Source: a virus
Lineage: Duplodnaviria > Caudoviricetes
Strand: one strand, 5' to 3'
DNA length: 64,000 nucleotides
IMG/VR virus record: IMGVR_UViG_3300031555_003626
Location: 169,330-233,329 of that record
Shown: in pieces, positions 62,125 through 63,084 of the stretch
Position numbering within the stretch: the stretch's first letter is position 1
Layout: the number at the start of each line of letters is the position of its first letter
The notes under the pieces: model-generated
The model's input: only the letters and a program-made list of their open reading frames with translations
The model's database searches: none
Told to the model about the DNA's origin: nothing
Made by a program: the position numbers and the translations under genes

Positions 62125-63084
62125 ATGAGTACTATTAAAACAATTGAAATAAAGTCCCCACCAAAGCTTCTTAATAAAGAAGGCAAGGAAAGACGTTCGG
62201 TTGCGAAGATGGTGCTTTTGTGACGAAACTTGGCACTTACGTATGGAATGGGGCCAAGCACGTTGGCAAAACGTATTAATAAAACAAATCAGGAAGCACA
62301 AGAGATTTTCGATAACTTCTTTAAGAGCTTTCCGAAGGTAGAAGAGCTTATTAATAGCTCGAAAGAATTTTTAAGAACTCACGGTTATGTAGAAGACTGG
62401 GCAGGTAGAAGACGTCATTTGACAGATTACTTCCTTAATCCTTATGAAGCTTCTTACATGGATCCTGATAAGCTTATTGCTCAGACTTTTAATCCTATTC
62501 TTGGTTGTGAGAGCAGACCTCTTGTAGATGATAAGCTCACTTCTTGGGTAAATAGAGCTAAGACAACTAAGAATAATAAAGAATTTGATGAGCTTGCTAA
62601 GTTGGCAGCAAAAGAAGGAATTATTCTATCTGCAAATACCGGTAGAATCGCTCAGGCAGAGAGACAGTGCCTTAATGCAAGAATTCAGGGATCTGCAGCT
62701 TCACTTACTAAGCTGGCTATGATCCAGATTCATAATAGTCAGGAACTTAAAGATATTGATGCAAAACTTGTTATGACTATTCATGATGAAGTTATGCTCG
62801 AATGCCCTGCTTTGTATGCAGACCAGGCATCCGAGATTCTTCCAAGAATTATGATTGATGCTGCTGCACCTTATATCGATGTTCCTATGAAATGTGACCC
62901 TGCTATTGAGTCTCGTTGGTATACTTCGGAGTACGCCGTAGCTGTTCAGTCTGAGTTTAAGAAGCTTACTGATAAAGGACTTGAAAGAGATGAAGCATTT
63001 AAGAAGCTTTATGCTAAGCACCCCGAGCTTCCTGAAGAAGCTATTTACAAAACTATTACTGAAGGCATTGACCTTGAATTTTAA
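62125..63084 (+). CDS. polA: DNA polymerase family A, piece 3 (motifs B, C); in-frame TGA at 62221-62223 within a 12-nt insert
   Basis: GAGGAGG RBS, ATG 62125; 'RRSVAKMVLL*RNLALTYGMG', 'N.IQGSAA', 'TIHDE'. Confidence 0.8.

Follow-up and report, generated by a model that had tools for sequence, protein, structure and literature searches.

A 12-nt stop-containing insert in a phage DNA polymerase gene: a putative programmed bypass cassette of a mobile GIY-YIG element

In phage T4, as at the locus described here, a free-standing homing nuclease (MobA in T4) interrupts an essential gene, whose pieces gain C- and N-terminal extensions (Manning and Atkins, bioRxiv 10.1101/2022.08.31.505936). Both systems place a coding gap early in the downstream ORF (gene 60 in T4), between matched and often wobble-variant codons, with a stop following the take-off codon, and in both the cassette outlives the nuclease and may later be lost. 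The T4 gap has been shown to protect against self-cleavage (bioRxiv 2022.08.31.505936). It is 50 nt long in gene 60 and 20 nt in the shortest clade described (bioRxiv 10.1101/2022.08.31.505936), whereas the gaps reported below are 5-13 nt. The T4 host gene encodes the topoisomerase large subunit, whereas here the hosts are motifs A and B of polA and a HAD gene, at several sites.

Other known systems share single features. The MobE-split nrdA gene of Aeh1 shows that a nuclease insertion can split an enzyme and supply tails needed for function (bioRxiv 2022.08.31.505936); no coding gap is reported for it there, and the tails at our locus are Hint-like. In synthetic stop-hops in E. coli (Weiss et al. 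1987), matched codons around a stop were read as one amino acid, according to a later review (PMC5009743); that 2016 review knew of no natural in-frame stop hopping (PMC5009743). One polA insert described below (L068) is an exact Ser-stop-Ser hop of this kind and the HAD case is a +5 hop, but the present cassettes occur naturally, interrupt an essential gene and come with an RNA signal that is conserved. Short non-coding blocks are likewise skipped at matched codons, as proposed or shown, in the terminase of Streptomyces phage Hau3 (PMC10732093) and in the byps of Magnusiomyces mitochondria. Those cases involve a hungry or unassigned sense codon (UUA in Streptomyces) and not a stop, the byps are 27-55 nt long, and neither has been described in a nuclease cassette with a start-codon helix. 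A literature search, which did not cover most subscription journals, found no paper describing the cassettes reported here.

The window, the 64,000-nt stretch of DNA that was analysed, forms the last part of a virus record that is complete at 233 kb and has an end overlap of 14.8 kb. It encodes a family A DNA polymerase in three pieces, the last of which lies behind a GIY-YIG gene and contains a 12-nt insert. We interpret this insert as a programmed translational bypass ("stop-hop") cassette within a mobile GIY-YIG element and assign that reading a probability of roughly 80%. Its support is comparative sequence only, and no protein has been observed. The features of the locus are as follows.

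58700..60568, plus strand: polA piece 1, 622 aa, 3'-5' exonuclease and N-terminal polymerase part (Pfam PF01612, PF00476)
about 60359-60568, plus strand: tail of piece 1, ~70 aa, Hint-like by eye only (no fold prediction for this tail)
60568..60999, plus strand: polA piece 2, 143 aa, motif A and then a cassette-derived C-terminal extension (Pfam PF00476)
about 60805-60996, plus strand: C-terminal extension of piece 2, intein-N-like (Hint) fold, no catalytic residues seen
61060..62079, plus strand: free-standing GIY-YIG homing endonuclease, 339 aa, with NUMOD3 and NUMOD1 (Pfam PF01541, PF07460, PF07453)
62125..62220, plus strand: 32-codon first frame of piece 3, a 14-codon cassette-derived N-terminal extension and the first half of motif B
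62218..62220, plus strand: take-off codon TTG (Leu); the cognate tRNA-Leu(CAA) is encoded by the phage
62221..62232, plus strand: 12-nt coding gap, consisting of the stop TGA, a 6-nt spacer and the landing TTG
62233..63084, plus strand: resumed frame of piece 3, 283 codons, motif B Tyr, motif C and C-terminus

The frame opened by the ATG at 62125 runs for 32 codons, holds the R754 and K758 equivalents (alignment A3) and ends on the TTG at 62218-62220; TGA (62221-62223), the spacer and a second TTG (62230-62232) follow, after which the frame stays open to 63084. When the 12 nt were removed, motif B became identical to that of three relatives (L001, L002 and L013) that are 98-99% identical in protein, in which pieces 2 and 3 form one 383-aa gene with motif B unbroken. 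The protein of these gap-free relatives aligned to motif B of Taq polymerase without a gap. An earlier, sequence-only reading had proposed a TTG-flanked insert in motif B from the rule that its Lys and Tyr stand eight residues apart. The coordinates, the gap-free relatives and an independent assembly all confirmed the insert, and the spacing argument held against natural contiguous alleles; in the alignment of polA homologues with and without the insert, which that reading had proposed as a check, the gap-free alleles had an intact motif B. Matched-codon bypass with a stop after take-off, its main proposal, remains the best explanation.

An assembly artefact would have refuted the proposal. 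A 91%-identical phage that was assembled independently (L026) has the identical 12-mer, and L037 has a variant that differs by one base, so the insert is no such artefact. The end overlap of 14.8 kb holds a further copy, but the sequence around it is identical to that of the window, and it therefore provides no independent evidence. A dead gene or assembly error is extremely unlikely even in the absence of raw-read data: besides the independent assemblies, both frames of piece 3 are under purifying selection (pN/pS 0.04-0.10 for the 32-codon frame against five relatives and 0.08-0.21 for the downstream frame), and complete contigs of 208-223 kb bear such cassettes. No dnaE or polB family scored over the cut-off in a profile search of the complete genome, in which polA was the only polymerase over the cut-off. 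The best cultured relative reached only 41% identity.

Among 188 ordinary gene ends of this genome, 7 show an exact codon match 12 nt past the last codon, and the single TTG match is therefore only modestly unusual. The weight of the case rests on the family of relatives. Loci were drawn from viral contigs, metagenome contigs and protein look-ups, and those from the protein look-up were chosen for truncated products, which is a selection bias. In all, 23 different inserts, each 5-13 nt long, were counted. They occupy five sites, of which polA has four and a HAD gene has one; 20 of the inserts came from the main locus set, at the four polA sites. Insert lengths were 12 nt after a motif A Ser, 7, 8 or 10 nt after a motif A Glu, 7, 10 or 12 nt after a motif B Leu (the window's site, B1) and 9, 10 or 13 nt after a motif B Thr, and the insert of L068, which was found later by its leader motif alone, was 6 nt long. 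These sequences are related and the counts are not independent events; they represent five sites and roughly a dozen length classes.

A stop was the first triplet after the take-off codon in all 23 inserts, and all three stop codons were used. The landing codon was synonymous with the take-off codon in 20 of 23, often differing only at the wobble base, and was near-cognate in the other three (TTG to GTG twice, GAT to GGC once). Eleven of the 23 changed frame. What is conserved is thus the property of being a stop and the meaning of the codon, not the letters, which would point to the ribosome. This pattern of stops, synonymous landings and frame changes fits bypassing and, on present comparisons, neither readthrough nor restart.

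Readthrough of the UGA by a phage opal suppressor tRNA would add four residues. It is compatible with the window's insert, which is in frame, and draws slight support from a tRNA-like gene with a UCA anticodon at 20139-20248. The product would, however, carry a Leu where the K758 equivalent should stand, counted from the motif B Tyr, nearly half of the inserts shift the frame, many use TAG or TAA, and a second cassette in the same genome combines TAG with a frame shift. The D loop of the tRNA-like gene is abnormal, and TGA ends 28 of 188 long ORFs, a usage that also led us to reject an alternative genetic code. We regard readthrough as hardly tenable.

Very unlikely, too, is termination followed by a new start at the second TTG, in which the helix described below would bring the Shine-Dalgarno sequence (SD) near and the polymerase would be left split inside the O-helix. 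The landing TTG and GTG at this site are start codons, two of the three mismatched cases land on GTG, and hairpin-shortened SD spacing has a precedent in T4 (PMC3014915). These points are outweighed by a CTC/CTC variant at the same site (L063) and by the other sites, where landing is on Ser, Glu, Thr or Asp codons that are unable to initiate. In family A polymerases a catalytic helix spans motif B from Lys to Tyr, and a break between these two residues of one helix is structurally unlikely. A group I intron was also rejected, since 12 nt are too short for its core and no placement gave an exon-final U with an intron-final G.

Eight relatives (L026, L037, L057, L058 and L060-L063) carry two cassettes within one polA, in motifs A and B, so that two hops would have to succeed for each polymerase made. 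Four database proteins (P0037, P0039, P0054 and P0074) have four extra motif A residues; the DNA of P0074 (L021) has TAG there, so gene callers read these cassettes as stop reassignment. At nearly the same motif B position, a distant relative has a 308-nt insertion (L036:3201-3513) that is group-I-intron-like by eye, which suggests that motif B is a repeated homing target.

The GIY-YIG gene splits polA, and cassette-free relatives lack it. A cassette was present at every one of the 11 polA loci in which a GIY-YIG gene immediately precedes the split (10 recognized by motif and L062 by Pfam), and also at three HAD loci with such a gene (L110-112); no GIY-YIG gene was present at any cassette-free locus examined. 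The element is missing from the window's nearest relatives, and between about 60600 and a point ~30 nt beyond the landing codon the DNA is more divergent from theirs. From these comparisons, the 12 nt are part of a mobile GIY-YIG element that splits polA, adds tails to both new ends and places its short stop-containing insert among the best-conserved codons in the vicinity. A sequence search of viral contigs found no relatives of this nuclease. The insert destroys the nuclease target in its own genome, as we infer by analogy with T4 MobA; protection is likewise inferred, and the evidence here is association only.

The cassette also has the life history of the T4 MobA element, in which the nuclease is lost first and the cassette later. 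Many loci retained the cassette in the absence of the nuclease. In one (L064), the split and the N-terminal extension were kept, nuclease and cassette were both lost, and SD and helix were weakened; its natural gap-free protein (P0126) equals, in length and layout, the 315-aa product predicted from a hop in the window. A LAGLIDADG-like gene occupies the first polA split in L065 (L065:2508-3470), where a very strong SD lies downstream without a cassette. On a tree of downstream polA DNA, cassette rows required 7 changes, no fewer than shuffled labels, with many weak inner branches; the cassettes are thus scattered over the polA tree.

The split between pieces 1 and 2 is common to the whole clade. 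The extension of piece 2 gave a faint PT-HINT Pfam match (E 0.04). In its structural model (pLDDT 73), the top six fold matches were all inteins, and the best had a weak score (Z 5.9, rmsd 1.4, 53 aligned). The tails at both polA splits are similar, intein-N-like without catalytic residues, and are followed by short basic N-terminal leaders; they have no such counterpart in the T4 gene 60/MobA element. Active split inteins, for which we looked for a Hint fold, an N-terminal Cys/Ser and a C-terminal His-Asn with a +1 nucleophile, were rejected: the junctions lacked catalytic residues in alignments A2 and A3, and the likeness to Hint-N was weak. The clade-wide first split suggests that a dead split intein has been put to new use as a tag for assembly, and the three polymerase pieces probably assemble via the added tails. 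A predicted complex of the piece 2 extension with the 32-aa first frame scored 0.47 against 0.02 for the best control; the runs shared at least 93% of contacts, and partner pLDDT was at least 52. Of 80 solved complexes, 58 reached the mark applied to such scores, as did 2 of 110 mismatched pairs, but those reaching it with scores of at most 0.60 included only 7 solved complexes and both mismatches. This is weak support and was not used as evidence.

The sequence-only reading had missed that the insert is linked to a GIY-YIG cassette, that it has a family of variants that change frame, and that a very strong SD is combined with a helix between start region and take-off site. Its description of the locus as of the T4 gene 60 type stood for the matched codons and the stop after take-off but not for the RNA signal. 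A local take-off stem-loop of the T4 kind, with its stable tetraloop, was sought and rejected: local folds in the window were no better than shuffles, and the cassettes had a mean local fold of -6.5 compared with -14.7 in T4 gene 60. Gene 60, in turn, has neither a start-region helix nor an extreme SD (-7.9 and -9.5). The signals predicted in the window are as follows.

62108..62121, plus strand: extended Shine-Dalgarno sequence, -20.4 kcal/mol, the strongest predicted in the genome
62114..62136, plus strand: 5' strand of the helix, comprising the 3' end of the SD, spacer, start codon and first codons (fold; compensatory changes in relatives)
62208..62222, plus strand: 3' strand of the helix, comprising the last codons of the first frame, take-off codon and first two stop bases (fold)
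62232..62240, plus strand: post-landing bases that can pair with the 3' end of the SD, at site B1 but not in all cassettes

SD energies were calculated against an assumed Bacillota-type anti-SD, the host being undetermined. All 30 non-redundant polA cassette ORFs had an extended SD of -17 to -22 kcal/mol, compared with -6 to -11 kcal/mol in cassette-free ORFs (n = 15), with L065 as an exception to this rule. Helix duplex energy averaged -16.2 (weakest, -11.6) in the 30 cassette ORFs and -6.6 (strongest, -12.2) in 36 cassette-free comparisons, and pairing exceeded synonymous-codon randomisation in 24 of 26 distinct cases. The helix sequence differs at each site, with compensatory pairs at three of them: C:G to G:C at the take-off wobble base (L063), A:U to C:G at site A1 and two swaps at site A2. 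At the four sites, pairing was better between cognate strands than between swapped ones (P = 0.007, 0.02, 0.10 and 0.04, uncorrected for relatedness). Two unseen cassettes, those of L068 and of the HAD gene, were recovered by the SD feature alone, and the helix was found in both. In a cassette-free locus (L024:1790-1880), SD and start region nevertheless pair strongly with motif A codons, which is possibly a relic after cassette loss.

In T4 a mini-SD stands 5-7 nt before the landing codon; judged by eye alone, some cassettes have AGGA or GTGA at a plausible distance from it, without a consistent motif. A fixed SD-to-landing spacing across the helix was rejected, a rough count by eye giving 8-14 nt and no tight ruler. 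The leader used as a DNA pattern gave no match in one search. Two sigma-70-like matches before piece 3 were not used as promoters (11 found against 7.5 +/- 2.8 expected). The N-terminal extension is conserved but may serve subunit assembly rather than nascent-peptide signalling.

The helix bears on excision of the gap from the RNA, in which the 5' leader would serve as splint while a micro-intron is removed before translation by a nuclease of phage or host origin and a phage RNA ligase. The genome encodes two RNA ligases of the T4 Rnl1-like and Rnl2-like families (G000:C1:131999-132607 and G000:C1:143526-144023), and its over-long tRNA genes are consistent with inserts. Since the post-landing bases can pair with the 3' end of the SD, the gap core would be bulged out between two helices in free mRNA. 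In four of six B1 cassettes the leader paired better with the gap removed, at the window's site only slightly. In 22 of all 30 cases, however, pairing was better with the insert present; in 26 of 30 the leader paired at least two bases of the stop itself, and in L005 the entire insert lay inside the helix. Nothing in excision calls for the first triplet to be an in-frame stop or for the last one to be synonymous, no RtcB was found in the genome, and splice-site bases were not conserved. Excision is thus unlikely.

The same genome holds a second cassette, outside the window. It was found by scanning the genome for very strong SD sequences and lies in a HAD_SAK_2-family gene (G000:C1:155450-155994; L089:1051-1595) that is broken after codon 11 by a 5-nt insert containing a TAG stop, with a shifted frame and a landing Asp codon that overlaps the stop. 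Strong SD and start-region helix were both present. The orthologue in G001 is contiguous and lacks the 109-aa ORF that precedes the gene here. The same insert and a further variant occurred in relatives of 62-64% identity, and in L110-112 the same insert lies behind a GIY-YIG gene. HAD cassettes showed the same fold, and cassette-free HAD homologues did not. A whole-genome tblastn comparison with G001 was too noisy and missed this cassette; the SD-based scan of nine records gave no further homology-supported ones.

The cassette thus works like T4 gene 60/MobA but is not a member of that element, because it differs in its host genes, in the family of the nuclease, in the length of the gap and in the RNA signal; no sequence homology to the MobA element was seen, and the nuclease here is of the GIY-YIG family. 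Anatomy, selection, covarying helix and nuclease association are read from aligned loci; the steps of hopping are inferred. The very strong SD would load ribosomes although the helix buries the start codon. The ribosome would then stall, its A site occupied by the stop while peptidyl-tRNA-Leu is paired to the take-off codon. The start region, by then exposed again at a distance of 20-35 codons behind the ribosome, would pair with the exiting mRNA, and this pairing would zip into the take-off and stop codons, displace the anticodon and drive the ribosome forward by 5-13 nt. Pairing at the mRNA exit has been proposed as a forward driver in T4 (bioRxiv 2024.12.09.627546). The tRNA would re-pair at the matched codon near the end of the helix, where landing might be placed by renewed pairing of the SD with 16S rRNA across the helix, which would explain the tolerance of near-cognate landing. 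Split ribosome-binding sites in which a hairpin shortens the SD spacing are known from T4 genes 25 and 38 (PMC3014915). Translation would resume to give the 315-aa piece 3 with motif B intact, to be joined to pieces 1 and 2 via the tails. The extreme SD may offset both the burial of the start codon and a low hop efficiency.

Other features of the genome were noted. The tRNA-like gene with the opal anticodon has a long D-loop insertion and no match in eight related records. Over-long Rfam tRNA matches of 134-196 nt lie at 20257-20408, 21482-21615, 22118-22313 and 22532-22691 of the window, a GOLLD RNA lies at 26165-26678, and weak Y-RNA-like matches were found near 19748 and 20027. An NAD-salvage-like cluster with a 742-aa pyruvate formate-lyase-like gene (48190-53586, from translations, by eye) points to an anaerobic host.

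Programmed bypassing has been established for very few natural genes, and an essential polymerase here appears to depend on one. Cassette genes are mis-annotated by gene callers as truncated or stop-reassigned (e.g., P0037 and P0074), and a simple rule (extreme SD, short first frame, helix, matched codon) can be used to search for them, its SD part having found the two unseen cassettes. The two dozen natural variants are ready-made compensatory mutants for testing exit-mRNA pairing as the driver of the hop (bioRxiv 2024.12.09.627546). We give about even chances to the wider proposal that these cassettes form a new class of recoding signal, in which the start region would pair with the take-off and stop codons and eject the peptidyl-tRNA while the SD would offset the helix and help landing, and in which nucleases would shield their targets with 5-13 bases, stop-hopping being portable and widespread in Bacillota-type phages. 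If this is true, any homing nuclease could shield a conserved target with only 5-13 extra bases.
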